64,000 nucleotides of DNA from an uncultured delta proteobacterium (GTDB lineage Bacteria; Desulfobacterota; Binatia; UBA9968), in assembly GCA_963737905.1 (NCBI GenBank), contig CAVTUQ010000026.1, positions 160,001-224,000 on the forward strand, read 5' to 3'. A program made the translations under genes and the position numbers. Below the pieces are notes generated by a model. The model made no database searches, was not told the origin of the DNA, and worked only from the letters and a program-made list of their open reading frames with translations. Numbering within the stretch: position 1 is the first letter of the stretch; every line of letters starts with the position of its first letter. This document shows, piece by piece, positions 4,850-52,867 of this stretch.

Positions 4850-4873
4850 GTGCTTGGAGGAAAGGGTAGAGAC

Positions 4874-12403: not shown

Positions 12404-12405
12404 CG

Positions 12406-15137: not shown

Positions 15138-17393
15138 ATGTCGCGACTGTTTAAAGCCGGCTTCTTCGGCTTGCTTGTAGGGGTCGCGGGGCTGGTGGCG
15201 AGTTTTTTCCATTTTGCCCATGACATTGAGGAAGATGTGGGTCTCGGCTTGTTGTTCCAACTGAGGGGAGTCAGAAAAGCACCATCAGATGTTGTTGTAA
15301 TTAGTATCGACCGTGAATCCTCTGAGCAGCTTGATGTACCCGATAACCCCGATAGATGGCCTCGTTCTCTCCATGCACGTTTGGTCGAAAACCTCGAGAG
15401 AGAAGGTGCGAGGGTCATTGTCTTTGACGTATATTTTATCGAGCCCCGCTCTCCCAACGAGGACGATTCCTTTGTTACAGCAATAAGAAAAGCACGGAAT
15501 GTCGTGCTTGCCGAACCGCTTAAAGCGAGCGAAGTGGCCGGGTCCGACACGGACGGTTCTTACATGGGGCAGCATCAGATCGTCAAAAGAGTGAAGCCGA
15601 TCCCCCCCCTTTCACAGGCTGCCGTCGCCACGGCACCTTTTGTTCTCCCAAGACTACCCGTTAAGGTAAACCAATATTGGACATTCCAAGCGGCCGCCGG
15701 AGATTCCCCGACATTTCCGGTTGTCGCATTCCAACTCTATACTTTGCAGGCCTACGACGAATTTATCCGCATATTGGAAAAAGTGAGTCCGAATCAAGCC
15801 GGAAAACTGTCACACGATGCCGATACAGCGATTAAGTCAAAAGGTGCCATGAGGTTGATTCGGGATATCAGAGAAATTTTCGAAAGCGACCCTTTGATTT
15901 ACGAGAAAATGGTTGCGGAGTTAGACCGCTCGGACCGCGCCACGGGCGATGGGAATAAAATCAGATTCCTCAAATCTCTTGCCAAGATGTACGGCGGCGC
16001 GGATCACCAATATCTCAATTATTATGGGCCGCCACGCACGTTCAACACGATGCCATTTTATCAGGCGTTGCGACTCGATGAAGAGTCAGGCAGCGAACGT
16101 AAGATCGATCTCAAGGGTAAAGCGGTCTTCGTGGGGCTTTCCGAGGTATTGCTTACAGAAAGAAAGGACAGTTTTTATACGGCTTTCTCAAAAACTAACG
16201 GTGTGTTTATCAGTGGGGTCGAGATTGCTGCGACCGCATTTGCAAATCTTTTAGAAGATACATCCGTGAAACCGATCAGCACGCACTATTACATCATTAT
16301 TATTTTGGCCTGGGGGCTCCTGGTGGGTGTTGTTTGTCGTACGGCTGCTCCAGTACTTGCGGCGATAGGGATTCTCGGTATGGGCATTTTCTATCTCGCC
16401 GGTGCGCAGTATCAATTTAACGCTCATGCCACGTGGTATCCGGTCGTTATTCCCCTGTTCTTGCAGGCTCCGCTGGGATTTTTTGGCGCTGTGTTATGGG
16501 ACTATTTTGAGACGAATAAAGAGCGGCAGAATCTCAGGAAAGCTCTTGGTTACTATGTTCCCAACGAGGTGGTGGATGAGTTAGCAAAAAATATCGTCGA
16601 TCTGAAACGAGGCGACCAAACGGTATACGGTGCTTGTTTGCTCACGGATGCCGCGGGTTTCACCACGTTGTCTGAAAAGATGGGCGTGCGGGAATTGAAC
16701 GCCTTAATTGAAAAGTATCATCGGGTCATATTCGAGCCGATAAAGCAGAACGGAGGGCGGGTTATCGACCTGGCAGGAGATTCGGTGTTGGCAATCTGGA
16801 AGGCTGCTGGACCTGATGCCGAGCTGCGGAAACAGGCCTGCCATGCTGCTCTGGGTGTTGCCAAAGCGGTGCGCCAGTTCAATCAGTCTTTCGAGACTGT
16901 CAAACTACCGACACGCGTGGCCATTCATGTGGGACAGATCTTCTTGGGCAACGTGGGCAGTGAGGAAGATTATAGGTATGGTGCTCAGGGAGATACCATC
17001 AATACGGCATCAAGGATGGATGGTCTCAATAAATACTTGGGAACGGAGATTTTGGTGTCTGAAGAGGTCATACAAAACCTCGATGGTTTCTTAACCAGAG
17101 AAGCAGGTAGATTCCTGCTGAAAGGAAAGGCTCAGCCGATCGTAGTTCATGAACTATTATGTCGCACAGAAGAAAGCGACGAAAAACAGACAAGGGCTTG
17201 TGCGATCTTTGCCGAGGCGCTTCAAGCTTTCAGAAAGCGGTCTTGGGATGAGGCGAAAGCCAAATTTCATGAACAGATGAAAAACTCCGGAGAATATGGT
17301 TTGTCGAAGTACTACCTAAAGCTGTGTGAGCAGTATAAGAGGAATCCACCTGGGCAAGGATGGGACGGTGTGATCGATCTAGTGGAAAAATAG
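15138..17393 (+). CDS. CHASE2-domain membrane class III nucleotide cyclase (CyaK/CyaD-like)
   Basis: DVVVISID, WPRSLHA, VFDVYF and SGVEIAA CHASE2 motifs; three TM segments; cyclase TDAAGFT, AGDSV, NTASRM; C-terminal WDGV. Confidence 0.92.
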   Translation: MSRLFKAGFFGLLVGVAGLVASFFHFAHDIEEDVGLGLLFQLRGVRKAPSDVVVISIDRESSEQLDVPDNPDRWPRSLHARLVENLEREGARVIVFDVYFIEPRSPNEDDSFVTAIRKARNVVLAEPLKASEVAGSDTDGSYMGQHQIVKRVKPIPPLSQAAVATAPFVLPRLPVKVNQYWTFQAAAGDSPTFPVVAFQLYTLQAYDEFIRILEKVSPNQAGKLSHDADTAIKSKGAMRLIRDIREIFESDPLIYEKMVAELDRSDRATGDGNKIRFLKSLAKMYGGADHQYLNYYGPPRTFNTMPFYQALRLDEESGSERKIDLKGKAVFVGLSEVLLTERKDSFYTAFSKTNGVFISGVEIAATAFANLLEDTSVKPISTHYYIIIILAWGLLVGVVCRTAAPVLAAIGILGMGIFYLAGAQYQFNAHATWYPVVIPLFLQAPLGFFGAVLWDYFETNKERQNLRKALGYYVPNEVVDELAKNIVDLKRGDQTVYGACLLTDAAGFTTLSEKMGVRELNALIEKYHRVIFEPIKQNGGRVIDLAGDSVLAIWKAAGPDAELRKQACHAALGVAKAVRQFNQSFETVKLPTRVAIHVGQIFLGNVGSEEDYRYGAQGDTINTASRMDGLNKYLGTEILVSEEVIQNLDGFLTREAGRFLLKGKAQPIVVHELLCRTEESDEKQTRACAIFAEALQAFRKRSWDEAKAKFHEQMKNSGEYGLSKYYLKLCEQYKRNPPGQGWDGVIDLVEK

Positions 17394-17443
17394 CAGCTTA
17401 ATTTGATTTCGCGCGGTAATGTAACCGCCAAGGCAGGTGAGCC

Positions 17444-20400
17444 GTGAAGAGGGTCTATTCATCGTTAGCTGTCATTTCTTGCATAGTCCTCTCGAGGGTA
17501 TGCGTCTACTCCGCTGTGTCTCCTACGGCAATAACCTGTGACCCATGGGTTGCAAGAATGGTTTCAGTCCAGGGGAACGTCGAGGTCAGACGGGCGAACC
17601 AGACACAGTGGCAGCCGGCTCACTTGAACGACACCTACTGTAGCGGCGATCGGATTCAGGTGGGAGAGAGAAGCCGAGCCAACGTCGCCCTGGTCAACCA
17701 GCCAATTATCCGTCTCGACCAGAACACCACGATCACTTTCGGAGGAGTGAGAGAAGAACGCACTTCTCTGATCGAGCTGCTTAGGGGAGCGCTTTATTTC
17801 TTCAGCCGTTTACCGCGGAACCTGGAAGTGCGTACCGCTTTCGTCAATGCCGGTGTGGAAGGGACCGAAGGCTTGGTTAGAGTTGAAGCGGACAGGACCT
17901 TTCTATCGATTTTCGAAGGGAGCGTGCTGGCTACGAACCAGGCCGGGAGTCTCACACTCACCAGCGGCCAGTCAGCAGTCGCCGAACAAGGCAGAGCCCC
18001 CACATTAACTGTGGTGGTGCGTCCTCGAGATGCCGTCCAATGGGCGTTGTACTATCCACCCACGCTCTTTTTTCGCCCTGAGGAATTCCCCGCGGGCCCC
18101 GGTTGGGAAGGAATGGTTCGAAGCTCCATCGAGGCTTACATGAAAGGTGATTTAGAGGCAGCCTTCGAAAGCATCAAGGGAGTTCCGGATACTATCAGCG
18201 AACCACGGTTTTTTGTCTACCGTGCCTCGTTGCTGCTGGCGGTGGGGCGGGTCGATGAGGCAAGCAAGGACATCGAGCGCGCACTGAGTTTAAGCCCGAA
18301 CTACAGTGATGCATTTGCGCTGCAATCCGTTATTGCCGTGGTACAAAACGAAAGAGAGAAAGCACTGGACATCGCAAGAAAAGCTGTTGAAGCTGATCCA
18401 AAATCCGCCGCGGCACTGATCGCCCTTTCCTATGCGCAGCAGGCAAATTTCGACCTCGAAGGCGCACTGGAGAGCCTGAAGCAAGCGGTGCAAGTAAACC
18501 CGAATAACGCCCTGGCTTGGGCTAGGTTGTCTGAGCTTCATCTCTCCTTCGCGCGACTAGATGAGGCCCTCGAAGCGGCCCAGAGGGCCGTGGCCCTCGA
18601 TCCAAACCTCGCAAGGACACAGACAGTTCTGGGATTTGCCTACCTGACGCAGGTCAATATAACAGAGTCAAAGAGGGCCTTCGAAAGGTCGATTGAGCTT
18701 GATCAGGCATACTATCTCGCGAGACTAGGTCTGGGTCTCGCGAAGATCCGAGAGGGTGATTTGCCTGAGGGAAGAAGAGAGATCGAAATTGCTGCAAGTC
18801 TGGACCCAAACAACTCCCTTGTCCGCAGCTATCTGGGCAAAGCCTACTACGAGGAGAAACGCATACCTTTGGATCAGCGCGAGTATGCGATCGCCAAGGA
18901 ACTGGACCCGAACGACCCAACACCGTGGTTCTACGATGCAATTGCCAAACAGACCACGAACCGGCCGGTTGAGGCGTTACAGAATATGGATAAAGCCATC
19001 GAACTGAACGACAATCGGTTGGTTTACCGGTCACGCCTGTTGCTCGATTCAGATCTGGCTGCGCGAAGCGCAGCACTTGGCCAGATCTACAACGATCTCG
19101 GTTTCCAGCAGCTTGGCCTGGTAGAAGGATGGAAATCCGTTAACACCGATCCAACCAACTTTTCCGCTCACCGATTGCTGGCCGATACATACGCGACTCT
19201 GCCGCGGCACGAGATCGCCAGGGTCAGTGAGTTGTTCCAGTCCCAACTGCTTCAGCCCATCAACATCACACCCATTCAGCCCCGGCTCGCTGAGAGCAAC
19301 CTCTTCCTCATTAGTTCCTCTGGCCCTGCGCGATTGTCCTTCAACGAGTTCAATCCCCTGTTTACCCGGAATGGAATTTCGTTCCAGACGACCGGCCTTG
19401 CCGGTGAAAATAGTACGTATGGCGGGGAAGGTGTTCTCTCTGGGATCTACAATAAGGCATCTTTCAGCCTTGGCGGTTTTCACTTTCAAACGGACGGATG
19501 GCGAACCAATGCTGACCAGAAGGACTCCATCGGTAACGCCTTCTTGCAATTTGAGCTCTCCCCGAAAACAAGCGCACAGGCTGAATTTCGGCAAAGAGAT
19601 ACAAATCAAGGCGATGTCCGACAAAGATTCTTCCCTGAGGATTTCTTTCCTGGCTTAACAGACAAAGTCGATAGTTTCAGCATACGTTTTAGCGGCCGTC
19701 ACTCGTTCTCGCCGGATTCGATCATGCTCGGCTCAGTTACGTTTCAAGACAGAGATCAAAGAGTAAGAGATGAATCGCCCCCTTCTCCTTTTCTTACTTT
19801 CACTGACACTAAACGTCCTCAGAATGCTGTTAGTGTGGAGCTTCAACACCTATTCCGTTCGCGCTACTTTAATCTTACAAGCGGTGCGGGATACTTCGAC
19901 ATCAGTGAAAAACTCCGAACGATGGCAGGAACAATTTTGCCACCTCCTTTTGATTTTAGTTCAGCAACCCTAAATACAGGCGTCCAACACGTCAATGCCT
20001 ATGCGTATGCCAATATCAACTTACCAAAAAGTGTGATTGTTACGACCGGGATAAGTTTTGACTATTTGAAGGGCGATTCGGTCTTCATTCCAGGGGGCGA
20101 TCAAACCCAATTCAATCCGAAATTCGGAATTACGTGGAATCCGCTCCCAGGGACGACACTTCGTGCGGCTGCGTTTAGGGTCTTAAAGAGAACGCTCATC
20201 ACAGACCAGACGCTTGAGCCAACCCAGGTCGCTGGATTCAATCAGTTCTTCGATGATCCTGAAGTAACAGAAGCATGGCGATACGGGGCGGCTGTCGATC
20301 AGAATAGTTACGAAGAACTTGTTTGGAGGCGCGGAATTTTCCACAAGAGATTCGGAGATTCCTCTAGTTGATGTTTCAGGTCCCGCTCCCGTAACCCGAA

Positions 20401-20846
20401 AACTTGACGGCAAAGAGTATTTCAGCCGCGCGTATCTTTTTTATCTACCCCATGAATGGCTGGCACTGAGAGCGGAATACATATTTGAACGATTTAAGAA
20501 CGATCGGTTGCTAGAAGAGCCGATCAGATTGAACACACATCGCGTTCCTTTGGGGATCAATTTTTTTCACCCTTCCGGATGGAGCGCGTCCCTGACGGCC
20601 ACTTACTATAGCCAAGACGGCAAATTTGTAAGACTTGCAACCGGCCTTGATCAGTCGGCGAGTGATGACTTTTGGACGGTCGATGCTGCAATCACGTATC
20701 GCCTGCCACAGCGCTATGGTTTCGTTACAGTTGGCGCGACGAATCTTTTTGACAAAAAATTCAAGTTTTTTGAGGCGGACCGCAACAACACAAACATACA
20801 ACCGAACAGAATAGGCTTTCTTAAACTAACACTGGCGCTACCGTAA
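17444..20846 (+). CDS. FecR-TPR-beta-barrel outer-membrane receptor (NsrA-like), split by a +1 frameshift near 20305
   Basis: Signal peptide; FecR (GDRIQVG, AGVEGTE); many TPRs; barrel strands; second ORF 20319-20846 carries the barrel end (NLFDKKF). Confidence 0.85.
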
Positions 20847-20996
20847 ATCAGCAACTTTTCGAAGCAACGTAACAAGATGGACCATTCGTCTTCGAAAAGC
20901 GCCAGCAAGGGTGCCATGGAAAAGAATATTAATCCCTCGGGCAGCTAAAGCGCGCGAGAGCGAGCACCAATGGCAAAGAAGGCAAAAACCTTTAGC

Positions 20997-21230
20997 TCAA
21001 CAGTATCTAACGGGCATACCATTGATCCAGTAAATGCATCCGGCTTTTGAATGATTAAAAAGTAGTGAGCCGATATATCTGAACCCATCCTTACTATTGT
21101 AAAGATCGTCAAAGTCTTTTTTGGAAATCGCTTCTTTCTTCGCGCCATTTGTTGGTACTACACTAACAACTTTGCCAGTATCAATTTCGACAGTAATTAC
21201 CAACAGTTTCTTTTCAGATCCTTGGGGCAT
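20997..21230 (-). CDS. 77-aa peptide with C-terminal Cys-x11-Cys motif (candidate precursor or signal peptide)
   Basis: Strong RBS AGAAAGGAG; own sigma-70 promoter; ends HSKAGCIYWINGMPVRYC-stop. Confidence 0.75.
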   Translation of the reverse strand: MPQGSEKKLLVITVEIDTGKVVSVVPTNGAKKEAISKKDFDDLYNSKDGFRYIGSLLFNHSKAGCIYWINGMPVRYC

Positions 21231-21408
21231 TGTAAATAACTCCTTTCTATCCTAGAGAATCAAACTTGGTCATGAGCGCTTGACTATCAGCCACGGCCTG
21301 CTTTCTCAGTATGGGATCACAAGCCTACCGCTGCTCAAACCACTCCCCTGGACAAGCTTACGGCTCAAAGCTATTTAGGAAAAATTAAGGCCAACTCATA
21401 GTGGCAGG

Positions 21409-21437
21409 ACTTTATTCACCGACGCGGTTCTTGTCAA
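21409..21437 (-). promoter_or_regulatory. Sigma-70 promoter of the 77-aa peptide gene
   Basis: TTGACA-N17-TAAAGT on the minus strand; 19-20-nt direct repeats just upstream (21448-21492). Confidence 0.6.
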
Positions 21438-21637
21438 GTAATTTTTGAGAGTGTGTTGCTCTTTTAAGAGCGTGTTGTCATTTCTAAGAGCGAATCTCCG
21501 CAGAGAATCAGAACCTGCAGCAAAGCGGTGATTTTACACAGTTATCTAAACCATTACATTATGAGGAAATGCTTCAACTGCTTTGGGCGATTTCTCTTTT
21601 ACTGAACTCAGTGAACACCTTGACAGAGTGAGTCTGG

Positions 21638-21745
21638 GCGCCCAGACCTAGCCATCCTTGGAAACTTCGTCGTTCGGAAAATTTTGTTTTTTGTTTGTTT
21701 CCACCACTTTTCCGTAGGGCCTCTTCAAGAAGTTGTCTCCGGTAT
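21638..21745 (-). pseudogene. Remnant of a sigma-54 activator Fis-HTH 3' end
   Basis: Encodes RRQLLEEALRKSGGNKQK, matching RRLIEEELRNSGGNKQK of 48827-50410. Confidence 0.7.
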
Positions 21746-21936
21746 TTGACATCCCACCGACCGAGGCGACCAGCGTTTATAGTGAGGCACAGCATCAATA
21801 TTGTAATGACCCTTTAACTTGCTTTTGGTCCGGCCCAGTAATATACACTCGTTTGTCTATCGCCTTCGATATGCTCCCATAAGTTCGGCTTAATGGAATT
21901 GGGTACCATGCGACCCATTTGGGATTGATTCCCGTT

Positions 21937-24900
21937 ATGATTTGTACGCAATGCCAGTCCGAGAATTCGTTCACCGCGATCTTTTGCGACCACTGTGGGG
22001 CTCGTCTTGAGGCGGCTTGTCCTAAGTGTGGCGAGCCCAATCGGCAAGGAGCCAAGTTTTGTCGAAACTGTGGGCAACTCATAAATCACACAGCAGAAGC
22101 AGTCCCGGCTATGGTTTCTGCGGTACCGTCACCGGAGACCTATGTCCCTAAACACCTCGCTGAAAAGATATTGGCCTCGCGCGACTCTCTAGAAGGAGAA
22201 CGAAAGCAGGTCACTGTTCTATTTGCCGACATACGCGGGTCGACCAGCCTCGTGGAGGGGCTCGATCCAGAAGAGGCACAGAAAATTATTGACCCGGTCT
22301 TGAATGTCATGATGGACGCGGTTCATCGTTATGAGGGTACCGTCAACCAGGTGTTAGGGGATGGAATCATGGCGCTTTTTGGCGCGCCGTTGGCGCACGA
22401 GGATCACGCCTTGCGCGCCTGTTATGCCGCCCTGGCGATGCAGGAAGAAATGCGGCGGTATCGAAGAAAACTCGGGCAGTCGGAGGAATTGGGGTTACAA
22501 ATCGGGATCGGTTTGAACTCCGGCGAAGTTGTGGTGCGTTCTATCAGTAACGATCTCAATGTTGACTATTCCGCTTTGGGCCATACAACGCACCTAGCGG
22601 CTAGGATGCAGGAACTTGCAGCGGGTGGAACTACTTTGATGACGGCCTCGACTTTGCGGCAGGTGGAGGGATTCGTTCAAGTAAAATCGGTTGGCGCGGT
22701 GCAAGTAAAAGGTGTTTCTCGACCCGTTGAGGCCTTCGAAGTCGTCGCCGCCACGACGGCGCGGACTCGTGTACAGGCGGCGGCCCTGCGCGGGCTGACG
22801 CCATTAGTCGGACGCCGCACCGAAATCGAAGTTTTCAGCAAACTTGTTGAAGAGGCGGCATCTGGCAAGGGCCAAATCTTAGCGATGGTTGGCGAGCCAG
22901 GCATGGGGAAATCGCGCTTGGTCCACGAATTTGCTCGCCATCAGTTACGCCCGAGTTGGCTAGTGTTGGAGGGCGCATCGGTTTCCTACGGTAAGGCGAC
23001 TCCTTATTTCCCGCTTATCGAGATGTTGCGTCACTACTTTCAAATCGTCGATGGAGAAGGCAGCGAAAACATCCGAGACCAAGTGGTGATGCATATTTTA
23101 GAACTCGATAATATGCTAAAGGATGCGGTCCCACCGATCCTTTCGTTGCTGGATGCGATGCCGGATGAAAAAATGACTTCGCCGGCGGATGGGCATAATG
23201 GGTTAGTCCGGCTGCAAGAAATCGGCGAAATGATCAAACATTTCCACTCGATGGATCCCCAGCAGCGCCGCCGCCATACTCTGGACGCAGTGAAGCGGGT
23301 GCTCATCCGTGAGAGTCAACGGCAGCCGCTGCTAGTCGTTTTTGAGGACCTGCATTGGATCGATAGCGAAACCCAGGCATTTCTTGATAGCTTTATAGAA
23401 AGTCTGCCGAAGACGCGTCTCCTTCTACTCGTCGATTACCGGCCCGAGTACAGCCATGGCTGGGGCGATAAAAGCTATTACACGCAACTTCGCGTCGACC
23501 CATTGCAGCCGACCAGCGCAGAAGAGTTGTTACAACACCTCGTGGGAACCAATAAAGACTTGGTTCCGCTGAAAGAACTGTTAATTCATCGAACTGAAGG
23601 AAATCCTTTTTTCGCAGAGGAGAGCGTACGGTCTCTTGTGGAAGTTGGAGTTCTGGTCGGTGAGAAGGGTGCGTACCGGCCGGGTTTGATAATCGATGAG
23701 ATCCGGATTCCGAGCACCGTGCAAAGTGTCGTAGCGGATCGTGTCGATCGCTTGCCGATCGAGGAAAAGCACCTCCTGCAGACGGCTGCTGTTATTGGTA
23801 TCGTTGTACCTTTACCTTTGCTCCGCGCGGTTGCTGATCTCACCGAGGGCGACTTACGTCGTTATCTCGCCAATCTTCAGGAGGCTGAATTTCTCTATGA
23901 GACCAACCTCTTTCCAGAGTTGGAATATACTTTTAAGCATGCGCTCACCAACGAAGTTGTTTACGGCGCGCTTCTGCATGAACGTCGAACCGCCTTGCAT
24001 GCGCGTGTGTGTCGCGCCTTTGAGGAAGTCACAGGCGACCGGCTCTACGATCATATTGAGCAGCTCGCGCACCATGCCTTCTGTGGCGAGTTGTGGGAAA
24101 GGGCCGTGTCATTCCAGCGCCAGGCCGGCGCTAAAGCGTTGATGCGATCGGCCAATGTCGAGGCGGTGTTGTTTTTTGAGCGAGCTCTCGTTGCGCTTAA
24201 AAAATGGCCCGATAGCCGCAAGAAGTCGGAACAAGCTGTGGATCTTCGCTTGGAGCTCCGTAACGCACTTTTTTTGCTTGGTGAGTTTGACCGGCTCTAT
24301 CATTATCTCAAAGAAGCCGAGACCTTCGCGGAGACCCTGGGTGATCAACGGAGATTGGGTAGCGTACTTAATTTCATGATCTCCTACTTCGTGTTGATGG
24401 GAAATCACCAACGGGCGACGGAGATCGCCCAACGCGCGCTCAATGTTGGCGACCATGACATGTCCCTCGATGTCGTAACCCATTACTATCTAGGTGTTGC
24501 TTGCCATCATATGGGCAGGTATCGCGACTCCATGTCCGTTTTGACCCGGGCGATTGCTAACGTAGATAATGCGAACCTACGGTACGAGCGGTTTGGTACG
24601 GCCAACATTATCTCCGTCATTTGCCGCGTTTGGAAGGTTCAATGTCTCGCTCAGCTCGGTGCGTTTCAAGACGGCTTACTCAATGCGCGCGAAGCGATCC
24701 AGATCGCCGAGGAGTCTAAGCACCCCTATAGTCTTGCCTATGCGCGTTGCAGCCAAGGCCTATTGTTACTTGTCCAGGGAGAGATCGATGAGGCCATGCG
24801 GGTCTTGGAGGAATGCACAAAATTCTGCCAGCTCGCGGAAATCCGAGTTCTGTTTCCCCAGGTCGCTTCTTATCTGGGTCTTGCGTATGCGTTATCAGGG

Positions 24901-25383
24901 CGACTTGATAAAGCGTTACCGTTAATGGAAAAAGCTGACGAGGAAACCGGGCTTATCGGTAGGAAAGCCGGGCAGTCTCTGCGCATCGCCTGGCATGGCT
25001 ACGCCAACCTTCTCGCGGGGCGGATCGACGAGGCAGAAAAACTTGCCCAAAGGGCATTCGAATTATCTCAAGAGTCCAATGAAGAGGGGCATCATGCATG
25101 GACCCTTAAACTACTGGGTGATATTGCCGCGAGTAAGAAATCGACGGACAATCAGGCTGAAATCTACTATGGCCAAGCTTCGGCTTTGTCGAGGAAACTC
25201 GAAATGATTCCGCTTCAAGCCCATTCATCTTTGGCGCTAGGACAGTTCTATTTTCACAACGGCGATGCCACACGGTCCCGTGACGAATTGGCACGAGCGC
25301 TTGGGTTGTACCGGGAATCAAAGATGAGATTTTGGCAGACCCGTGTCGAAGCGGCACTTGATGAATTGTCGCGTACCTTATAG
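21937..25383 (+). CDS. Double zinc ribbon + class III cyclase + STAND/AAA_16 ATPase + TPR protein, copy 1
   Basis: Four CxxC; FADIRGST and LGDGIM; Walker A GEPGMGKS; Walker B FEDLHW; EGNPFF; YTFKHAL; TPR tail. Confidence 0.92.
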   Translation: MICTQCQSENSFTAIFCDHCGARLEAACPKCGEPNRQGAKFCRNCGQLINHTAEAVPAMVSAVPSPETYVPKHLAEKILASRDSLEGERKQVTVLFADIRGSTSLVEGLDPEEAQKIIDPVLNVMMDAVHRYEGTVNQVLGDGIMALFGAPLAHEDHALRACYAALAMQEEMRRYRRKLGQSEELGLQIGIGLNSGEVVVRSISNDLNVDYSALGHTTHLAARMQELAAGGTTLMTASTLRQVEGFVQVKSVGAVQVKGVSRPVEAFEVVAATTARTRVQAAALRGLTPLVGRRTEIEVFSKLVEEAASGKGQILAMVGEPGMGKSRLVHEFARHQLRPSWLVLEGASVSYGKATPYFPLIEMLRHYFQIVDGEGSENIRDQVVMHILELDNMLKDAVPPILSLLDAMPDEKMTSPADGHNGLVRLQEIGEMIKHFHSMDPQQRRRHTLDAVKRVLIRESQRQPLLVVFEDLHWIDSETQAFLDSFIESLPKTRLLLLVDYRPEYSHGWGDKSYYTQLRVDPLQPTSAEELLQHLVGTNKDLVPLKELLIHRTEGNPFFAEESVRSLVEVGVLVGEKGAYRPGLIIDEIRIPSTVQSVVADRVDRLPIEEKHLLQTAAVIGIVVPLPLLRAVADLTEGDLRRYLANLQEAEFLYETNLFPELEYTFKHALTNEVVYGALLHERRTALHARVCRAFEEVTGDRLYDHIEQLAHHAFCGELWERAVSFQRQAGAKALMRSANVEAVLFFERALVALKKWPDSRKKSEQAVDLRLELRNALFLLGEFDRLYHYLKEAETFAETLGDQRRLGSVLNFMISYFVLMGNHQRATEIAQRALNVGDHDMSLDVVTHYYLGVACHHMGRYRDSMSVLTRAIANVDNANLRYERFGTANIISVICRVWKVQCLAQLGAFQDGLLNAREAIQIAEESKHPYSLAYARCSQGLLLLVQGEIDEAMRVLEECTKFCQLAEIRVLFPQVASYLGLAYALSGRLDKALPLMEKADEETGLIGRKAGQSLRIAWHGYANLLAGRIDEAEKLAQRAFELSQESNEEGHHAWTLKLLGDIAASKKSTDNQAEIYYGQASALSRKLEMIPLQAHSSLALGQFYFHNGDATRSRDELARALGLYRESKMRFWQTRVEAALDELSRTL

Positions 25384-25478
25384 ACGCCAAAAGTGCAGAG
25401 ATTCGCTGGAACACCCAAGCAATAAGTCACGATTGAGTTAGCCCCGAAGAGGAAGCGGCTGCCGCGGACTTTTTCGAG

Positions 25479-27146: not shown

Positions 27147-27167
27147 TTTGTAATCCTTAACTCGCTC

Positions 27168-29036: not shown

Positions 29037-29085
29037 ATACACTTCGCCGCCGTCTGTTCTCATCCGTCCAGCAGAGCAAACTCAG

Positions 29086-40454: not shown

Positions 40455-40492
40455 TTGTAGAATTCTGTGGAACAACTTTTGTGGAGGTTACA

Positions 40493-42376
40493 ATGGGGAA
40501 GAGCCGGTTAGTGATACTTTTTGCTCTGGGTTTAGTTTTGACTACGACCGCGACCGCTCATAGCGGAGAGGTGACTGGCGTCTGGGAGAAGAAGCAGATG
40601 GACCCAAGAGTCGGATCCCAAGGGGCTGAGATAGACCGTATCCCCGAGATTAGTAACGTTAATCTTTTACCGTCAGATGCCCCGCCTCCCAAAGACCTGC
40701 GCTGCGATACGACTTCAAAGTGTACGTTTGATCTTCATTACTTTAAAGGCGAGACGTTTGATCTGAAAGACCCTACGAGAAAGAACATCCTCTTCATTGC
40801 CGGCGGGCCTGGGCAGTTCGTTCCGGAAAACGGTCATGGTAATCGAGCGTTGGCTGCCCTAGACGGTAACAGAACCCTGACCGTTGGCGGAAAACGTATT
40901 CCCGACGTAAATGAAGGGCAACACAATATCGTCTATTTTCACGTTCGAGGGGCTGGCCAAAGCGTAATAAATAGAAACAACAAATACGATCAGTTCTTAC
41001 GTGCGAAATATGTTGTTGAAGATATAGAAAAACTGAGACAAGAACTTCTCGGCGAAAAGCCCTGGGACGCCATCTATGCGCATAGTTGGGGAACAGTCGT
41101 TGCCCAACTGTATGCAAGGAAATATGGGAAGCCCGACATTGCTTCTGGTCGCCCGGAATCTCGGGTCAAAAGCTTGATACTTTCAGCACCGATAATGAGG
41201 AAAGATTCTGAAACCCCCAAAGCGCGTATCAAACAGACTGTTTCCAACCTGAGGAAAATATATGAGTTCTATAGGCCTGTAGGGAATTGCACTATTTCGG
41301 ATGCGTCCTATCTCAAAAACCGCGTAGACGACTTCGATGAGAATTTCTCGCTGGGACTGAGCGGGGAAGATCTCGACGGAACAGATAATCTCTGTTTTGT
41401 AGATGATGCACGAATATTGGGCATAGCCCGTGACGTCGAAAGAATATTGACTGATTTGGAGCCCGACTATGGATCAGTGGATTTTGTTAAGGATCACTTT
41501 GATAGCTTGCAGCGTGATCCGAACTTTCCGGCGAGTCTAAAAAAGTATCCGCTGGAGTTCTTCGCAGCTCTCCGGACGGTTCAGATGCTCGGCGCACCAG
41601 ATGATAACGCGCTAGTATTCACACAAGATACTAAAAGCATGGTTGATATGGCTTTGATCATAGGTTACCACCTGGCACCGCAAATATCGCCGACCCTACA
41701 ACTCCCGTGTGACCCCAATGGCAGATTTCTCACGGGTGCAGCAGCTCCTCGCGCGATTAAGGAAAAATATTGCAAGAGGTTAATAGCAGCGAAAAAAAAC
41801 CTAGTCGAACTTGGCAACGGCTTAGAATCGGAGCGGGCCAAGTATGTCTTTGGCGCATACGACGGTGTGACTCGATGGGTTTTTAAAGCGCTGAATAAAG
41901 ATTGTTTCACTGGGCAAGATCTAATGAATTTTGCTACCGCAGCCATGGGACCTAATGACAGGAAGAAGCCTTTACGGGAAACCGCAAAGAAAATAGGAAT
42001 TGATTTATCTGGAGCTACGGTCTGCGGATGGGACCCCGGTGGGGGCAATGCCCATAGCGTGCCGACTCTTATCCTAGCTGGGAGCGCCGACGCCATCATC
42101 GCGGGTTGTCAAGCCGAGGATTTTTACAACGATGGACTGGCTGGTCAAAAAGTGTTTTTGGAGTTTCTCGGGATGGGTCACACAATGACCGTAGCTGATG
42201 CGAGACTCGGGGCACTGGCTTTAGATCAGACTCAGAAATTCTCCGATATCATCTCAAAATTCGTAATTATGGCACCTTCCCAACTGGCACAATTTGTCAG
42301 CAGTGTGCAAGGGGAACTGGGTGCGCTTAAAGCGCGGGTCCGTCGAACGAAAAATGGGCGCATAAAGTGTCCGTAA
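40493..42376 (+). CDS. Secreted alpha/beta hydrolase, S33 prolyl aminopeptidase/TAP-like
   Basis: Signal peptide; GGPG; AHSWG nucleophile; GSADA acid; GMGH histidine; several Cys. Confidence 0.8.
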   Translation: MGKSRLVILFALGLVLTTTATAHSGEVTGVWEKKQMDPRVGSQGAEIDRIPEISNVNLLPSDAPPPKDLRCDTTSKCTFDLHYFKGETFDLKDPTRKNILFIAGGPGQFVPENGHGNRALAALDGNRTLTVGGKRIPDVNEGQHNIVYFHVRGAGQSVINRNNKYDQFLRAKYVVEDIEKLRQELLGEKPWDAIYAHSWGTVVAQLYARKYGKPDIASGRPESRVKSLILSAPIMRKDSETPKARIKQTVSNLRKIYEFYRPVGNCTISDASYLKNRVDDFDENFSLGLSGEDLDGTDNLCFVDDARILGIARDVERILTDLEPDYGSVDFVKDHFDSLQRDPNFPASLKKYPLEFFAALRTVQMLGAPDDNALVFTQDTKSMVDMALIIGYHLAPQISPTLQLPCDPNGRFLTGAAAPRAIKEKYCKRLIAAKKNLVELGNGLESERAKYVFGAYDGVTRWVFKALNKDCFTGQDLMNFATAAMGPNDRKKPLRETAKKIGIDLSGATVCGWDPGGGNAHSVPTLILAGSADAIIAGCQAEDFYNDGLAGQKVFLEFLGMGHTMTVADARLGALALDQTQKFSDIISKFVIMAPSQLAQFVSSVQGELGALKARVRRTKNGRIKCP

Positions 42377-42389
42377 CGGCAAGAGTCAC

Positions 42390-42418
42390 TTGACAGGAAA
42401 ACAGCCACCAACTAACTT
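42390..42418 (+). promoter_or_regulatory. Candidate sigma-70 promoter
   Basis: TTGACA-N17-TAACTT ahead of the 80-aa ORF. Confidence 0.55.
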
Positions 42419-42451
42419 AGGCTAACTGAATTACCATAGGGAGGTGCGATT

Positions 42452-42694
42452 ATGGCCAAAACGAGTAATGTAGGTAGCAAGCTGATAAGAAAGGTCCGTC
42501 TCGAGATTCGCAAAGTGATTGCAGCAAATCAACATTGGCAACTCGCGGTTGACGACATAATAAAAGCAGCAAGACCCAAAGACAAAAAAGCTGAGAAGCG
42601 AGCAAGAAAAGCCGCTGTCTCCTTGGTGGTTGCCGGAAATCAGGCACTAGCGGATGCAGCTGCGAAAATTTTCCACAACATTGCGGGAAAGTGA
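42452..42694 (+). CDS. Small basic Ala/Lys-rich helical hypothetical protein
   Basis: RBS GGGAGGT, upstream promoter, 80-aa ORF. Confidence 0.7.
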   Translation: MAKTSNVGSKLIRKVRLEIRKVIAANQHWQLAVDDIIKAARPKDKKAEKRARKAAVSLVVAGNQALADAAAKIFHNIAGK

Positions 42695-42767
42695 ATTCGT
42701 TGCTGGCAAATAAGTTGAATTGTGGTGGGTGATAAATAGACGGCGGCCCCGACCAAACTTAAAAAAT

Positions 42768-42940
42768 AGTTATCCCCAACCTCTTCAACTTCTTGATCAA
42801 TCCTTGGCGGCTTAGCCTAGCACCCGAGCCGCTTTTTGTTTGTTTTCACCAGAATTTCGCACTGCCTCTTCGATCAGCCGGCGTTCTGAGTGGAAGCGCT
42901 CAAATTTCGGATGGAACCGTCCAAATAATTTTCGGTTATT
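42768..42940 (-). pseudogene. Second remnant of the GAF sigma-54 activator 3' end
   Basis: Nucleotide match to 48843-49090 (TTCAACTTCTTGATCAA, GAGCCGCTTTTTGTTTGTTT, GAACCGTCCAAATAA) with internal deletion and indels. Confidence 0.8.
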
Positions 42941-43044
42941 GGTTTCCCCGCACCGACGCTACGAAGCCTTGATCTCGTTCTCCGGCTGCCGCGTTGCCTG
43001 GCCAGTTTGTAACTGAGCGTATCCATGCTTTGCCAGCGGCACTA

Positions 43045-44206
43045 CTAGTGTAATGTCTCTAAATTAATAGTAGTTAATCTTCGTCTAAGGGGCAGGAGGG
43101 ATTTTTCATGCGAGTCGCCCCAGCTATTGTGTTGACGGAGAGTGAGACCAATATTCTGAAAACGTGGTCGCGAGCAGGAAAAACTCCGGCACGGTTGATG
43201 CAGCGGGCCAAGATTATTCTGTTGGTGGCCCAAGGAGAGCGTAACGAAATCATTGCCGAGAAGTTGGGAATCGATCCCAGACAAGTATCTCGCTGGCGCC
43301 GACGGTTTGTGGAAAAACGCTTGGCCGGGATCGAAAAGGATCTTCCTCGCGGCGGACGGAAGCCGAGCAAGCGGGAAAAGGTGACCCCTTTGATTATCGA
43401 GACCACCACTCAAACCAAACCGGCAAACGCTACCCACTGGAGCGTTCGAACGTTGGGAGAGAAACTGGGGATCGACAAATCGATGGTGTATCGGGTGTGG
43501 CAAGCCAGTGGTCTGAAGCCCCATCTGTCGAAGACCTTCAAAGTCAGCAACGACAAGAAGTTCATCGAAAAAGTCATCGACGTGGTGGGCCTGTATCTCA
43601 ACCCTCCCGAGCATGCGCTGGTGCTGTGTGCGGATGAGAAAACCTCGGTCCAAGCCTTGGACCGCACCCAACCGGGGCTGCCGATCAAGAAAGGGCGATT
43701 GGGAACGATGACCCACGATTACAAACGCAACGGCACCACCACGCTATTTGCCGCCCTGGAGATGGCCGAGGGAAGCGTCATCGCCACTTGCATGAACCGT
43801 CACCGGCATCAGGAGTGGATTAAGTTTCTCCATCTGATCGATCGACAGACCCCGGCCGAGTTGGATCTGCATCTGATCGTGGACAATTATTCGACGCACA
43901 AGCATCCTAAGGTCAAAACGTGGCTCAAAGGCCATCCCCGATTCCATATGCACTTTGTACCAACGTCGAGCTCCTGGCTGAACATGGTCGAGCGTTGGTT
44001 TCGTGATCTGACTGACAAGCGAATTCGACGCGGTGTTTTTAAGTCGGTCGCTGATCTGATTGCGGCGATCCAAGCCTATATTGAGCATCACAACCAAAAT
44101 CCTAAAACCTTTGTCTGGACCGCCAAAGCCGAAGACATTATCGCTAAGTATCGACGTGCTAAAGCCGTCTTGGATAAAGTACAAACAGCGTGAGACACTA
44201 CACTAG
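43045..44206 (+). mobile_element. IS630-family insertion sequence, apparently intact
   Basis: Ends CTAGTGTAATGTCTC / GAGACACTACACTAG (14/15 inverted match) including the duplicated TA of a CTAG target. Confidence 0.93.
43108..44193 (+). CDS. IS630 transposase
   Basis: HTH; [20 protein letters not shown] and [13 protein letters not shown] motifs. Confidence 0.96.
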
Positions 44207-44408
44207 TTTATCTATAAAGGCGATTAGCGTTTTAAAGGCGATTAGCGTTCATAGTGAGACAAGCATCAATATTTGTTGTGGCAATCCTATAACTTGCTTT
44301 TGGCACAGCCTGGTACTATACCCTTCTCTTGCTCCCTTCGATATGCATCCCTAACTCCGGCTTCATGGAATGGGATACGATGCAACCTAACTGGGATTGA
44401 TTCCCGTT

Positions 44409-47400
44409 ATGATTTGCCCGCAATGTCAGTGCGAGAATTTGCCTGCTTCAATCTTTTGCGAGCACTGCGGGGTGCGGCTCGAAGCGGTCTGTGCTCACTG
44501 TGGTGAGCCGAGCCGTCGTGGAGCCAAGTTTTGCCGAAACTGCGGGCAACTGATTAATCACACAGCAGCGGCCGCACCGGCCGTGGTCGCCGGAGTACCG
44601 TCACCGGAGACATATGTTCCCAAGCACCTCGCTGAAAAGATATTAGCCTCGCGGCAGGCGCTTGAAGGCGAACGGAAGCAGGTCACCGTTCTCTTTGCCG
44701 ACATCCGGGACTCTATGAAGCTGATCGAAAACCGCGATCCCGAAGAGGCGCAGAAGATCATCGACCCGGTGCTGCATCTCATGATGGACGCGGTTCATCG
44801 CTATGAAGGAACCGTGAATCAGGTGTTAGGAGATGGCATCATGGCGCTTTTTGGTGCGCCGTTGGCCCACGAGGACCACGCCTTGCGCGCCTGTTATGCC
44901 GCCCTGGCGATGCAGGAGGAAATGCGGCGGTATCGCAGGAAACTCGGCCAGTCCGAGGACGTTGGCTTGCAAATCGGGATCGGCTTGAATTCGGGTGAAG
45001 TTGTGGTGCGTTCGATTAGTAACGATCTCAATGTGGACTATTCCGCTTTGGGCCATACAACCCACCTGGCGGCTAGGATGCAGGAGCTCGCAGCCGGTGG
45101 AACTACTTTGATGACTTCCTCAACTTTGCGGGAGGTGGAGGGATTCGTTCAAGTAAGATCGGTTGGGGCGGTACAAGTCAAAGGTGTTTCTCGACCCGTT
45201 GATGCCTTCGAAGTCGTCGCTGCCACGACGGCGCGGACACGTGTACAGGCGGCGGCCGTACGCGGGCTGACGCCATTGGTCGGGCGCCAGAATGAAGTCG
45301 AAGTTTTCAATAAACTTGCCGAACAAACCGTCGCCCGTCACGGCCAGATTTTGGCGATGGTTGGCGAGCCAGGCATGGGTAAATCGCGTTTGGTGCACGA
45401 ATTTACCCGGCATCAGTTACGGCCGGGTTGGCTAGTGTTGGAGGGCGCATCGGTTTCTTACGGTAAGGCAACTCCCTATTTCCCGCTCATTGCAATGTTA
45501 CACCGATACTTTCGAATCGCCGACGGCGAAGGGAGCGCGAACATCCGAGACCGAGTAGGGATGCATATTTTGGAATTGGACGGCATACTTAAGGATGCGA
45601 TCCCACCGATTCTTTCACTACTGGGGGTGTTGCCCGACGACGTTCATCCGTCGGCAGCATGGGGGCAATTCAAAGATGTCGTCGAAGCGACGGAACGATA
45701 CCTTGCGATGGACCCACAACAGCGGCGTCGTTGTACCTTCGACGCGGTGAAGCGGCTACTGATTCGCGAGAGTCAACGGCAGCCGTTGTTAATCGTTTTT
45801 GAGGATCTCCATTGGATCGACGGCGAAACGCAGGCATTTCTCGATGGCTTCATGGAAAGTCTCCCGCTGACGCGTATTCTTCTACTCGTCGATTACCGGC
45901 CCGAGTACAATCATGGCTGGGGCGATAAAACCTATTACACGCAACTTCGTGTGGATCCGCTGCATCCGGTCAGTGCGGAGGAACTATTGCAGCACCTATT
46001 AGGACTCAACGCGGATCTCGCTGCGCTCAAGGATCTATTGACCCGGCGCACAGATGGAAACCCGTTCTTCGCGGAGGAAAGTGTGCGCTCTCTTGCGGAA
46101 ACTGGAGTGCTGGTTGGTGAGAAGGGGGCGTACCGGCCGGGGGTGAAGATCGATGAGATCCGTATTCCGAGCACGGTGCAAAACGTCGTCGCAGATCGTA
46201 TTGACAGATTACCGACAGAGGAGAAACATTTACTTCAGACTGCCGCCGTTATTGGAGTGATTGTTCCCGTACGGCTTTTGCGCGCCGTGACAGAACTGCC
46301 GGAAGGCGATCTTCAGTTCTACCTCACGCATCTACAAGCTGCCGAGTTTCTCTACGAGAGCAATCTTTTTCCAGAGCTAGAGTATACGTTCAAACACGCG
46401 CTAACCAACGAGGTCGCCTATGGCGCGCTCATTCAGGATCGCAAGCTTTCTCTTCACGCGAAAGTCATAAGCGCACTCGAAAGCATTTTCGGTGACAATT
46501 TACAGGATCACATCGAGAGTCTCGCGCACCATGCCTATCGCGGCGAAGTTTGGGAGAAGGCGGTGGGTTATTCGTGGCAATCCGGAAAGAAGGCGTCGCA
46601 ACGTTCAGCGAATCAAGAAGCACGAGAATTCTTTCGAACCGGGTTGAGAGCATTGGAGCATCTTCCGCAGAGTCGTGCGAATCTGCAACAGGCGGTTGAT
46701 CTCCGGTTAGAGCTTCGCAACTCGCTTTATTTTCTTAGCGAGTTCGATGAACTGCAAACTTGCCTGCGCGAAGCCGAATCCATCGCGCAGCGGATTTCAG
46801 ACGAACGCAGGTTGGGACGAGTGATTAATTTTCTGAATTCCTACTACGGCCTCATGGGCGAGCACCGCCAGTCCATCGAGTTGGGTACGCGCGGCCTGCG
46901 AATCAACCGAGACGATGTGGAGCTGAATACAGTGACCCATTACTATATGGGGTTAGCCTATCATCACGTCGGGCAATATGACCAATCGATCGCCTTCCTC
47001 AGGCGAGCTCTCTCGGTCACACAGGAGGAACGCTTCAAGCATGATCGATTTGGCACAGCCAATATCTTGTCGGTAATCTGTCGAATTTGGTTAACTCAAT
47101 GTTGCGCCCAAATCGGGCACTTCAAAGACGGGAAGACCCTGGCTGAGGAAGCGATAACGATCGCTAAGGAAGCGGATCATGCCTCCAGTCTTGCCTGGGC
47201 TTATCTGGGCTTAGGGTTTATTCATCTGGTTCAAGGGAATGTCAATCCCGCGATTAGAACGTTAGAAACGTGCCAGAAGATTTGTGGCGCCAGTAATATT
47301 CAGGTGTTGATGCCTCACATGGGCTCAAATTTGGGCTACGCATACGCTCTTGCAGGACGTGTTGACGACGCTATTCCACTCCTCGAGAAAGCCGATCAGC

Positions 47401-47843
47401 AATCGAAACTGAGTGGCCGTAAAGCGGCATGGGCTTTAAGGCTCACCTGGCTGGGCTATGCTAGTCTGCTCGGGCGTCAAATCGGTAAGGCACGAGAGCA
47501 GGCTCAACGCGCGGTGGCTCTGGCGAGCGATGCCGGCGAGCGCGGATACGAAGCGTGGGCTCACAAACTCTTGGGGGACGTTATTCAAGAAGAGTCATCA
47601 AATCTCAGCGAAGCCCTTAATCATTACGGTGCGAGTATGGCGTTAGCAACGGAATTCGGCATGCTCCCGCTCCAGGCTCACATTCACTTGACTCGAGGAC
47701 GCTTGCACCACCGTGAGAATCAGATCGAGCAAGCCAGAACCGAACTATCGCTGGCCCTCACATCGTTCCGTGGTCTGGAGATGCTCCTCTGGACAGACGA
47801 AGCCGAGCAAGCACTAAGCGCATTGGTGCATAAGGCGAGCTAA
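44409..47843 (+). CDS. Double zinc ribbon + class III cyclase + STAND/AAA_16 ATPase + TPR protein, copy 2
   Basis: Same motifs as copy 1; near-identical cyclase domain, diverged TPR region. Confidence 0.92.
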   Translation: MICPQCQCENLPASIFCEHCGVRLEAVCAHCGEPSRRGAKFCRNCGQLINHTAAAAPAVVAGVPSPETYVPKHLAEKILASRQALEGERKQVTVLFADIRDSMKLIENRDPEEAQKIIDPVLHLMMDAVHRYEGTVNQVLGDGIMALFGAPLAHEDHALRACYAALAMQEEMRRYRRKLGQSEDVGLQIGIGLNSGEVVVRSISNDLNVDYSALGHTTHLAARMQELAAGGTTLMTSSTLREVEGFVQVRSVGAVQVKGVSRPVDAFEVVAATTARTRVQAAAVRGLTPLVGRQNEVEVFNKLAEQTVARHGQILAMVGEPGMGKSRLVHEFTRHQLRPGWLVLEGASVSYGKATPYFPLIAMLHRYFRIADGEGSANIRDRVGMHILELDGILKDAIPPILSLLGVLPDDVHPSAAWGQFKDVVEATERYLAMDPQQRRRCTFDAVKRLLIRESQRQPLLIVFEDLHWIDGETQAFLDGFMESLPLTRILLLVDYRPEYNHGWGDKTYYTQLRVDPLHPVSAEELLQHLLGLNADLAALKDLLTRRTDGNPFFAEESVRSLAETGVLVGEKGAYRPGVKIDEIRIPSTVQNVVADRIDRLPTEEKHLLQTAAVIGVIVPVRLLRAVTELPEGDLQFYLTHLQAAEFLYESNLFPELEYTFKHALTNEVAYGALIQDRKLSLHAKVISALESIFGDNLQDHIESLAHHAYRGEVWEKAVGYSWQSGKKASQRSANQEAREFFRTGLRALEHLPQSRANLQQAVDLRLELRNSLYFLSEFDELQTCLREAESIAQRISDERRLGRVINFLNSYYGLMGEHRQSIELGTRGLRINRDDVELNTVTHYYMGLAYHHVGQYDQSIAFLRRALSVTQEERFKHDRFGTANILSVICRIWLTQCCAQIGHFKDGKTLAEEAITIAKEADHASSLAWAYLGLGFIHLVQGNVNPAIRTLETCQKICGASNIQVLMPHMGSNLGYAYALAGRVDDAIPLLEKADQQSKLSGRKAAWALRLTWLGYASLLGRQIGKAREQAQRAVALASDAGERGYEAWAHKLLGDVIQEESSNLSEALNHYGASMALATEFGMLPLQAHIHLTRGRLHHRENQIEQARTELSLALTSFRGLEMLLWTDEAEQALSALVHKAS

Positions 47844-52800: not shown

Positions 52801-52867
52801 AGTCCTACCTTACAGGAATGCTTGAAGCCTCTTTTTGTAGGGAGGGCTCTCCGACGACTTGACTAGC

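Follow-up and report, generated by a model that had tools for sequence, protein, structure and literature searches.

A stretch of 64,000 nucleotides from an uncultured bacterium of the Binatia (assembly GCA_963737905.1, contig CAVTUQ010000026.1, positions 160,001 to 224,000; hereafter the window, to which all coordinates refer) contains, at positions 15138-47843, a 32.7-kb row of signalling and biosynthetic genes, which is the subject of the present analysis. The span is probably a juxtaposition of two independently inherited modules, with the roles proposed below, in a rearranged region that bears an insertion sequence (IS). Module A (15138-21230) consists of the genes for a CHASE2 class III nucleotidyl cyclase, an outer-membrane FecR-TPR-barrel protein similar to NsrA of Sinorhizobium meliloti and a small protein of 77 amino acids (aa) with two cysteines. 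Module B (21919-42376) is a non-ribosomal peptide synthetase (NRPS) cluster with a STAND cyclase gene at its head and a secreted hydrolase gene at its end. In a preliminary description the whole span had been read as one peptide-signalling island. The genes listed there were all recovered in place in the open reading frame (ORF) list and with Pfam and NCBIfam, and they are indeed contiguous in the window, but they do not form one conserved unit. Two features had been overlooked: at 43044-44207 there is an IS630 element, and the barrel gene is interrupted at ~20303 by the insertion of one base.

The source genome (G000) is a 6.7-Mb metagenome-assembled genome (MAG), 87% complete and with 6.7% contamination. 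It was compared with a set of 61 related genomes, in which G001 and G002 belong to the same genus, and with a wider phylum sample of 401 genomes. G006, which has an NsrA-like protein, and G012, which has the hydrolase, are unpublished; G006 was not relied on and G012 was not used. The co-occurrence check proposed in the preliminary description gave a largely negative answer. Among the 61 genomes, close orthologues of the barrel protein (62-75% identity) occur in 12 and relatives of the hydrolase in 5, and both are found together only in G000 and G028. The NRPS, UbiD, hydrolase and STAND cyclase genes, which had been assigned to the same circuit as the receptor, therefore do not accompany it across the relatives.

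Module A recurs elsewhere with unrelated flanks and without NRPS genes, namely in G016, G028 (contigs C541 and C620), G030 and G032. In G016 and G028 the small gene lies just past the 3' end of a gene for a FecR-TPR-barrel protein of 1132-1135 aa, and the CHASE2 cyclase gene precedes the barrel gene. The flanks are glyoxalase and PD40 genes on one side and CO-dehydrogenase-like genes on the other in G016, and amidohydrolase and ABC transporter genes on G028 contig C541. Module B is likewise an independently conserved unit. Contig C560 of G028 carries, in order, a STAND cyclase (57% identity), the loading module fused to the following NRPS protein, the last NRPS protein and the hydrolase. Contig C158 of G002 begins inside the STAND cyclase gene (42% identity); the same set of NRPS genes comes next, together with a hydrolase that is more distantly related (27%). 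G017 retains the last NRPS gene and the hydrolase. Module A genes were not found on these stretches of G028 C560 and G002 C158, no hydrolase match was obtained in G016, and G002 and G001 (89% and 93% complete) gave no NsrA-like match at E <= 1e-20. G028 possesses both modules, on different contigs and with other genes in their flanks.

The gene order within module A is well conserved. In 13 of 14 loci (12 of 13 without G006) the gene immediately upstream of the barrel gene encodes an orthologue of the CHASE2 cyclase, 50-70% identical, and in the fourteenth the sequence begins inside the barrel gene; the two genes form a conserved pair of the NsrA/CyaK kind by their Pfam domains, as had been suggested. 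The small two-cysteine gene, too, turned out to be a real and conserved neighbour of the receptor gene. Apart from the window, all nine further loci (G016, G028, G403 and six metagenome contigs, with two contig pairs of identical scores that may be duplicates) have a member of its family no more than ~350 bp from the barrel gene's 3' end, convergently in five and co-directionally in four. In the 11 loci of close orthologues with downstream sequence, the profile described below finds the 77-aa family in five, once as two tandem copies. At the remaining six the same place is taken by the gene of another kind of Cys-rich protein, ~150-290 aa long and with a signal peptide of the Sec or lipoprotein type. 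The two tandem copies (locus L025, G032:C2, 4879-5466, minus strand) are 45% identical to each other and lie downstream of a single receptor gene.

In the wider phylum sample, a homologue of the barrel protein was found in 26 of the 401 genomes. Ten loci at 44-58% identity have downstream sequence; the small-protein family was recognized there by the profile in two, a small ORF that ends in a Cys...Cys hairpin was seen by pattern in three further loci and by eye in two, one of the others has a Cys-rich secreted protein and two have nothing. Of the 106 ORFs just past the barrel gene 15 end in C-x8-13-C, versus 16 of the 591 elsewhere in the same 21 loci, which are related and allow no formal test. 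Downstream of more distant barrel homologues (25-31% identity) no small ORF of the C-x8-13-C type was seen.

The first gene of module A (15138-17393, plus strand) encodes an inner-membrane CHASE2 class III nucleotidyl cyclase of 751 aa, with both domains above the Pfam cut-offs (CHASE2, PF05226, 1e-30 and 107.7 bits; Guanylate_cyc, PF00211, 2e-15 and 57.4 bits). The positions which we take to select ATP were mapped through the motifs [K/E]xxGD and xxWGxxVNxASR of mammalian and mycobacterial cyclases and are to be used as a lead; instead of the Lys/Asp pair they appear to hold Asp/Gly in the window, Glu/Gly in G016 and Ala/Gly in G028. By the same motifs, the pair is presumably absent from all three cyclases of the span (15138-17393, 21919-25383 and 44397-47843), and the STAND cyclases seem to have Gln/Ser at these positions and His where the transition-state Asn is expected. 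This absence suggests that module A, and its branch as a whole, may produce something other than cyclic AMP (cAMP). All three CHASE2 genes of the source genome adjoin a gene for a FecR-domain protein. The other two are on contigs C28 (~209060-211794) and C33 (~33066-36020), where the FecR partners are short (open frames of 162 and 357 aa) and without barrel fusion.

The second gene encodes the NsrA-like protein and is split in the assembly. Its first part (17444-20371, plus strand; FecR, TPR and TonB_dep_Rec_b-barrel in Pfam) is a 975-aa frame that stays in frame to about residue 953, continues into an aberrant tail and stops; it is 75% identical to residues 2-959 of the G016 orthologue. In the DNA alignment, one extra base relative to three orthologues lies at 20302-20305 (plus strand). 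The second part (20319-20846, plus strand) contains the last ~180 barrel residues in the +1 frame, matches the C-terminus of the Pfam barrel (profile positions 367-436 of 436) and is 75% identical to residues 954-1132 of the same orthologue, the intact orthologues being 1116-1146 aa in length. The protein belongs to a large family (of the 8,000 best candidates, which were the ones scored, at least 5,861 reach E <= 1e-20), and the most variable stretches of the receptor fall in the barrel, at residues ~765-890. An AlphaFold2 (AF2) model of the G016 orthologue was of low confidence (mean predicted local distance difference test score, pLDDT, of 55) and served for domain limits only: FecR at 37-154, TPR at 221-601 and a barrel of ~22-24 strands at 620-1129, with no plug-like segment between TPR and barrel.

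Since the barrel gene is frameshifted in the assembly, module A may be inactive in the source genome. The possibility that it is a decaying remnant here, with a real frameshift, an outer-membrane protein that cannot fold and three genes that no longer signal, is in our view evenly balanced against the alternative. The extra base sits outside any homopolymer run, the frame stops 22 codons after it, and the last ~8 barrel strands are left out of frame. Moreover, the small protein of the window has SKAGC in place of the family motif SSPGC (S in 39 of 44 and P in 39 of 43 sequences at the two positions), and the two genomes of the same genus, G001 and G002, show no NsrA-like gene. On the other hand, both halves of the barrel gene keep their 75% identity to the orthologue without further stops, the cyclase gene and the small gene are intact, and the SKAGC variant is shared by a 79%-identical metagenome relative of the small protein. 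A consensus or assembly error is also possible at the extra base in a MAG with 6.7% contamination. In the sequencing data, no run contains more than 0.23 of the words of window positions 19300-21300, no RNA run is listed, and the public contigs leave 20305-20371 uncovered, so that the extra base stands on the comparison of the assembly with the orthologues.

The third gene of module A (20997-21230, minus strand; protein P0001) is convergent with the barrel gene and is identified by the conservation of its family and by a Shine-Dalgarno sequence, AAGGAG, 8 nt ahead of the ATG. The 77-aa product has its two cysteines at positions 65 and 77 (C-x11-C). Relatives were found in 3 of the 61 genomes, the source genome included. 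A profile of four sequences, run against 1.84 billion representatives, gave 65 matches at E <= 1e-3, five of which (P0013, P0026, P0050, P0059 and P0064) were rejected as long multi-stretch repeat proteins, unrelated by Pfam. What is left is a family of ~60 clusters with members of ~62-150 aa, matched by no Pfam or NCBIfam model. C65 and C77 are invariant in all 44 aligned members, with the SSPGC motif preceding the first cysteine, and six members carry Sec or lipoprotein signal peptides. A homologous-protein search with the P0001 sequence returned a single relative, 79% identical, and a search for related loci with a 15-row alignment returned just two known genomes (genome contigs) and six short metagenome contigs. 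The best score in the ESM Atlas was 0.88, to unnamed clusters only.

With the 44-row alignment, AF2 predicts a compact beta-beta-alpha-beta-beta-beta domain (mean pLDDT 88, predicted template modelling score 0.65), in which the Cys pair brackets the last hairpin. Foldseek found no match in the PDB at E <= 0.001, and VIA-align found none with Z >= 2 over 48,161 chains. The family, the conserved position of its gene and its predicted fold are established here. The small proteins are 24-52% identical where the receptors share 66-76%. The mean column entropy of the Cys hairpin is 2.28, versus 2.26 in the N-terminal and 2.60 in the middle part, so the hairpin is not more variable than the rest of the protein. 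The preliminary description had considered, among other sources of the signal, a ribosomal peptide from this gene. The anatomy of leader and core is not what we find, because the predicted domain is single and compact, includes the hairpin and shows no extra variability there; besides, no maturation enzyme, protease or exporter is conserved beside the small gene in the flanks of the window, G016 and G028. The idea of a metal site built on the His residues close to the first Cys was given up, as those His are not conserved, and so was that of a beta-signal-like C-terminus, since the window clade ends in Cys and not in an aromatic residue.

In the 689 bp that separate the small gene from the divergent gene of the first STAND cyclase, an imperfect direct repeat, TGTTG..TAAGAGCG, occurs twice at 21440-21490, and a sigma-70-like site is found at 21437-21409 on the minus strand. 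The promoter scan of 20300-22000 was uninformative (4 sites versus 2.1 +/- 1.5 expected).

We propose that module A would work as a trans-envelope signalling unit of the NsrA/CyaK kind. The outer-membrane protein, with its periplasmic FecR domain and TPR array and its plug-less barrel of ~22-24 strands, would pass on a cue from the surface or the envelope; the periplasmic CHASE2 domain of the inner-membrane class III cyclase would receive it, and the cyclase would respond with a cyclic nucleotide. For the small Cys-pair protein, the most likely role is that of a partner of the barrel protein outside the cytoplasm, that is a co-receptor, a cargo or a cognate ligand. The invariant Cys pair, the signal peptides of some members and the replacement by secreted Cys-rich proteins all point to such a partner.

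The last of these roles deserves separate consideration. The small protein, or the Cys-rich proteins that replace it, might be a self-encoded ligand of the receptor, and module A would then be an autocrine, quorum-like or kin-recognition loop with cyclic-nucleotide output. We regard this as rather unlikely, even if several observations fit it. The small gene is strictly linked to the receptor gene in either orientation, its product diverges much faster than the receptor and is replaced by unrelated Cys-rich secreted proteins in close relatives, and the variable stretches of the receptor are located in the barrel. The S. meliloti system is also described as sensing a proteinaceous signal, in the passages found (PMC7529298). 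However, the small protein of the window clade has neither a signal peptide nor an exporter, the entropy values do not single out the hairpin, and fast evolution would equally fit a surface-exposed cargo or co-receptor under phage or immune pressure. When the barrel protein of G016 (residues 215-1132, from an 82-row alignment) was modelled as a complex with the small protein of the same genome (from a 44-row alignment), the score was 0.00 versus the mark of 0.32, which counts neither way. A bolder version of the idea, to which we give slightly less credence still, is that this branch of the NsrA-like systems encodes its own cognate signal or cargo, a disulfide-stapled small protein that is displayed or released via the plug-less barrel and read back by the CHASE2 cyclase; this would serve self or kin recognition, with an output that is perhaps not cAMP.

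Module B starts with a STAND cyclase gene (21919-25383, plus strand), the product of which has 1154 aa and contains a double zinc ribbon, a class III cyclase domain, AAA_16 and TPR (Pfam). All other genes of the module are on the same strand. They encode a UbiD-family decarboxylase (25479-27146; Pfam UbiD, 4e-56), an NRPS loading module with adenylation (A) and thiolation (T) domains (A-T; 27168-29036, 622 aa, Pfam), an NRPS protein in which condensation (C) domains alternate with these (C-A-T-C-A-T; 29086-35688, 2200 aa), a third NRPS protein with a TubC_N docking domain followed by C-A-T-C (35700-40454, 1584 aa) and an alpha/beta hydrolase of 631 aa (40481-42376) with a signal peptide and an AHSWG nucleophile elbow. 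The two larger NRPS proteins were delineated by Pfam and core motifs. The hydrolase is recognized by Pfam Abhydrolase_1 and Hydrolase_4, and its S33-type matches are weak.

As had been noted before, no thioesterase (TE) domain is present in any of the three NRPS proteins by Pfam. A reductase (R) domain for release is not seen in them either, and the last domain is a C domain with HHIVTDQ. The terminal C domain is also present in the homologues of G028, G002 and G017, which keep HHxxxD. In the first C domain (residues ~160-170 of the product of 29086-35688) the HHxxxDG motif is replaced by VHQIIWDG. This HQ variant is common to the window, G028 and G002 (also at loci L045 and L050), and since it is kept in the G028 and G002 homologues the domain is probably working and non-canonical, not dead. 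The loading module, which is separate in the window, is fused to C-A-T-C-A-T in G028, where the last NRPS protein is again C-A-T-C; it is probably fused in G002 as well, where the frame runs into the C domain to the end of the examined stretch. Hydrolase homologues follow the NRPS genes in G028 (41-46% identity), G017 (39-44%) and G002 (27%), and those of G028 and G017 also have signal peptides. No tblastn counterpart of UbiD was found in the G028 and G002 clusters, which makes it specific to the version of module B in the source genome. Module B would make a four-unit non-ribosomal peptide, which the terminal C domain would release. Its conserved accessories would be the STAND cyclase upstream and the secreted alpha/beta hydrolase downstream, with UbiD as a local addition.

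Beyond the hydrolase gene the span contains a basic 80-aa ORF (42452-42694, plus strand), which has a GGGAGG ribosome-binding site and no tblastn match in the G028, G002 or G017 clusters, and a second STAND cyclase gene (44397-47843, plus strand; Pfam), a 68% paralogue of the first by alignment. The source genome has ~7 STAND paralogues, and the two of the window are each other's closest relatives; elsewhere the paralogues flank unrelated genes, such as those for a BBE oxidase, an NMT1-like protein and an amidohydrolase. Upstream of the two window STAND cyclases, 165 nt are also alike (44236-44400 versus 21764-21928, 75%). Between the 80-aa ORF and the second cyclase lies the IS630-family element (43044-44207, plus strand), with its transposase at 43108-44193 (NF033545, 262 bits versus a cut-off of 100; Pfam DDE_3) and terminal inverted repeats of 16 nt at 43044-43059 and 44192-44207 (94% complementary). 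A fragment at 42771-43004, a duplication scar, is similar (86% and 75% identity) to 48845-49159, where the sigma-54 activator gene that lies beyond the second cyclase has its 3' end. Further mobile-element pieces, an IS110-type transposase fragment, HTH_Tnp_1 and rve_3, are found at 51404-54489. The IS630 element, the duplication traces (42771-43004 and the 165-nt upstream copies) and these IS fragments indicate that the region has been rearranged. The 80-aa ORF, the IS630 element and the second STAND cyclase would have arisen from duplication and insertion.

Two other regions of the source genome with pairs of STAND cyclase genes, loci L037 (G000:C4) and L038 (G000:C24), have a near-identical ORF pattern; they may be strain duplicates, which fits the contamination of 6.7%. 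The window is also crowded with other signalling genes (4850-5935, 10335-13758, 48827-50410 and 58312-62697), encoding a REC-cyclase, a GAF-PAS kinase, a REC protein, two NtrC-type regulators, a GAF sigma-54 activator and a Cache-GAF kinase, and the GAF domains of these neighbours could serve as receptors of cyclic nucleoside monophosphates (cNMP). An Rfam scan of the window matched no family.

The original reading of the span was that of one integrated island, in which the receptor and the cyclases would read a self-made signal, be it a ribosomal peptide, an NRPS product or a hybrid acylated by the terminal C domain. The genes of the span adjoin one another and mostly point the same way, the last NRPS domain is a C domain with intact HHxxxD and a TE is absent, the small gene and the first STAND cyclase gene are divergent neighbours 689 bp apart, and the G028 genome likewise contains both modules somewhere. 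We nevertheless consider such an island very improbable. Module A occurs without NRPS genes in G016, G030, G032 and others and module B without module A in G002 of the same genus, and in G028 the two are on different contigs, flanked by other genes. For the 77-aa product a single domain is predicted, the sheet of which includes the Cys hairpin, and no exporter, protease or modification enzyme is conserved beside its gene. The lack of a visible exporter, mentioned already in the preliminary description, extends to every large ORF of the window, none of which belongs to an exporter family. Finally, the IS630 element and the duplication traces show that the region is a rearranged one. As for the notion that the 77-aa ORF is fortuitous or has nothing to do with its neighbours, its product has no family name and no structural relative, but the conservation of the family, with two invariant Cys in 44 sequences, a confident predicted fold, a strong ribosome-binding site and the same spot beside the barrel gene in every locus examined, already refutes it.

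A number of points weigh against our preferred reading of two independent modules with the proposed roles. As kin, the compared genomes do not count as independent samples, and several of them are incomplete MAGs. The contigs of G028 are short, and the non-adjacency of the modules there covers 4.7 kb and 3.8 kb of flank only. The small gene and the first STAND cyclase gene share their 689-bp divergent intergenic region, so the two may be locally co-regulated in the source genome alone. The small protein of the window clade lacks a signal peptide, as its open frame allows at most 7 more residues, and for this reason the extracytoplasmic location of the predicted partner is a putative one in that clade. 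The predicted fold gives no functional hint, because no structural relative was found, and the domain limits of the receptor come from the low-confidence AF2 model of the G016 orthologue. The contig of the window contains no gene for a cNMP-binding regulator, with nine cNMP_binding genes elsewhere in the genome. In tblastn of the G016 orthologue against pSymB of S. meliloti, the identity to NsrA is 23% over residues 10-489, the N-terminal 42%, at E 2e-7 to 4e-7, and the barrel part is unaligned; the nsrA locus on pSymB, moreover, has no member of the small-protein family.

Among the closest known systems for module A is that of S. meliloti. There, a proteinaceous signal, for which the ribosomal protein uL2 is a candidate, is converted by the outer-membrane protein NsrA, together with the CHASE2 cyclases CyaK and CyaD1/D2, into cAMP that is read by Clr, according to the passages found (PMC7529298; PMC13001267). 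In both systems an outer-membrane protein composed of FecR, TPR and a C-terminal barrel is encoded beside an inner-membrane CHASE2 class III cyclase. The genes stand in the opposite order, with nsrA first on pSymB. There, a 2.1-kb unannotated stretch follows nsrA, which we take to be cyaK. The window differs further in that its cyclase presumably lacks the Lys/Asp pair for ATP, by the mapped positions, its contig encodes no Crp-like regulator such as Clr in S. meliloti, and its barrel gene is frameshifted. Judged by domain architecture and gene pairing, module A can be assigned to the NsrA/CyaK type, an assignment that is weak at the level of sequence and for which the residues specifying ATP are presumably absent.

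CHASE2 and FecR domains are combined in other ways elsewhere, as the passages found of two further papers indicate. In the Campylobacterota, a CHASE2 cyclase clusters with a phosphodiesterase, a FecR protein of the outer membrane and a TPR protein (PMC9239204). Common to this cluster and module A is the conserved neighbourhood of a CHASE2 cyclase and envelope proteins with FecR and TPR, but FecR and TPR are separate there and accompanied by a phosphodiesterase, whereas the window has the barrel fusion, no phosphodiesterase and the small Cys protein (PMC9239204). The BiofilmReg operon of Burkholderia encodes a response regulator, a LysM-FecR protein, a CHASE2 histidine kinase and a DUF4136 protein (PMC5192318). 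There too a periplasmic FecR-domain protein and a CHASE2 sensor form a pair, and a small protein comes after them; a histidine kinase provides the output, however, LysM-FecR has no barrel, and the small protein is of a different family (PMC5192318). The FecA-FecR-FecI system resembles module A in the coupling of a TonB-receptor-like outer-membrane barrel to a FecR domain and in the passage of a signal across the periplasm. In the window, by contrast, FecR is fused to the barrel protein, no plug, TonB box or sigma/anti-sigma pair is seen, and the output is a cyclase. No small Cys-pair partner is mentioned in the passages found of the literature on NsrA, CHASE2 and FecR.

STAND class III cyclases, in which a cyclase domain is followed by AAA/NB-ARC and TPR, are exemplified by mycobacterial Rv0386. 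The window STAND cyclases share the order of cyclase, AAA_16 and TPR with TIGR03903, the 'TOMM system kinase/cyclase fusion protein', which aligns over residues 91-1091. Membership in that family was rejected: the scores of 298 and 311 bits are far below the cut-off of 706, the match begins at position 280 of the profile and so leaves out the kinase part, and a kinase domain is absent. TIGR03903 is named for its association with natural-product loci, and the partner locus of the window STAND cyclase is an NRPS rather than a thiazole/oxazole-modified microcin (TOMM) one. The position of a STAND cyclase gene at the head of a conserved NRPS cluster hints that a secondary-metabolite locus may be under cyclic-nucleotide control.

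The span also shows how rearrangement can by accident line up genes for signalling and biosynthesis in a neat row. To our knowledge, NsrA/CyaK is the only relay from the outer membrane to a cyclase that has been studied, and we know of no explanation of how it senses. The conserved third component described here, small, fast-evolving, with a Cys pair and in a fixed position beside the receptor gene, would offer an experimental handle on what the barrel binds or exports.

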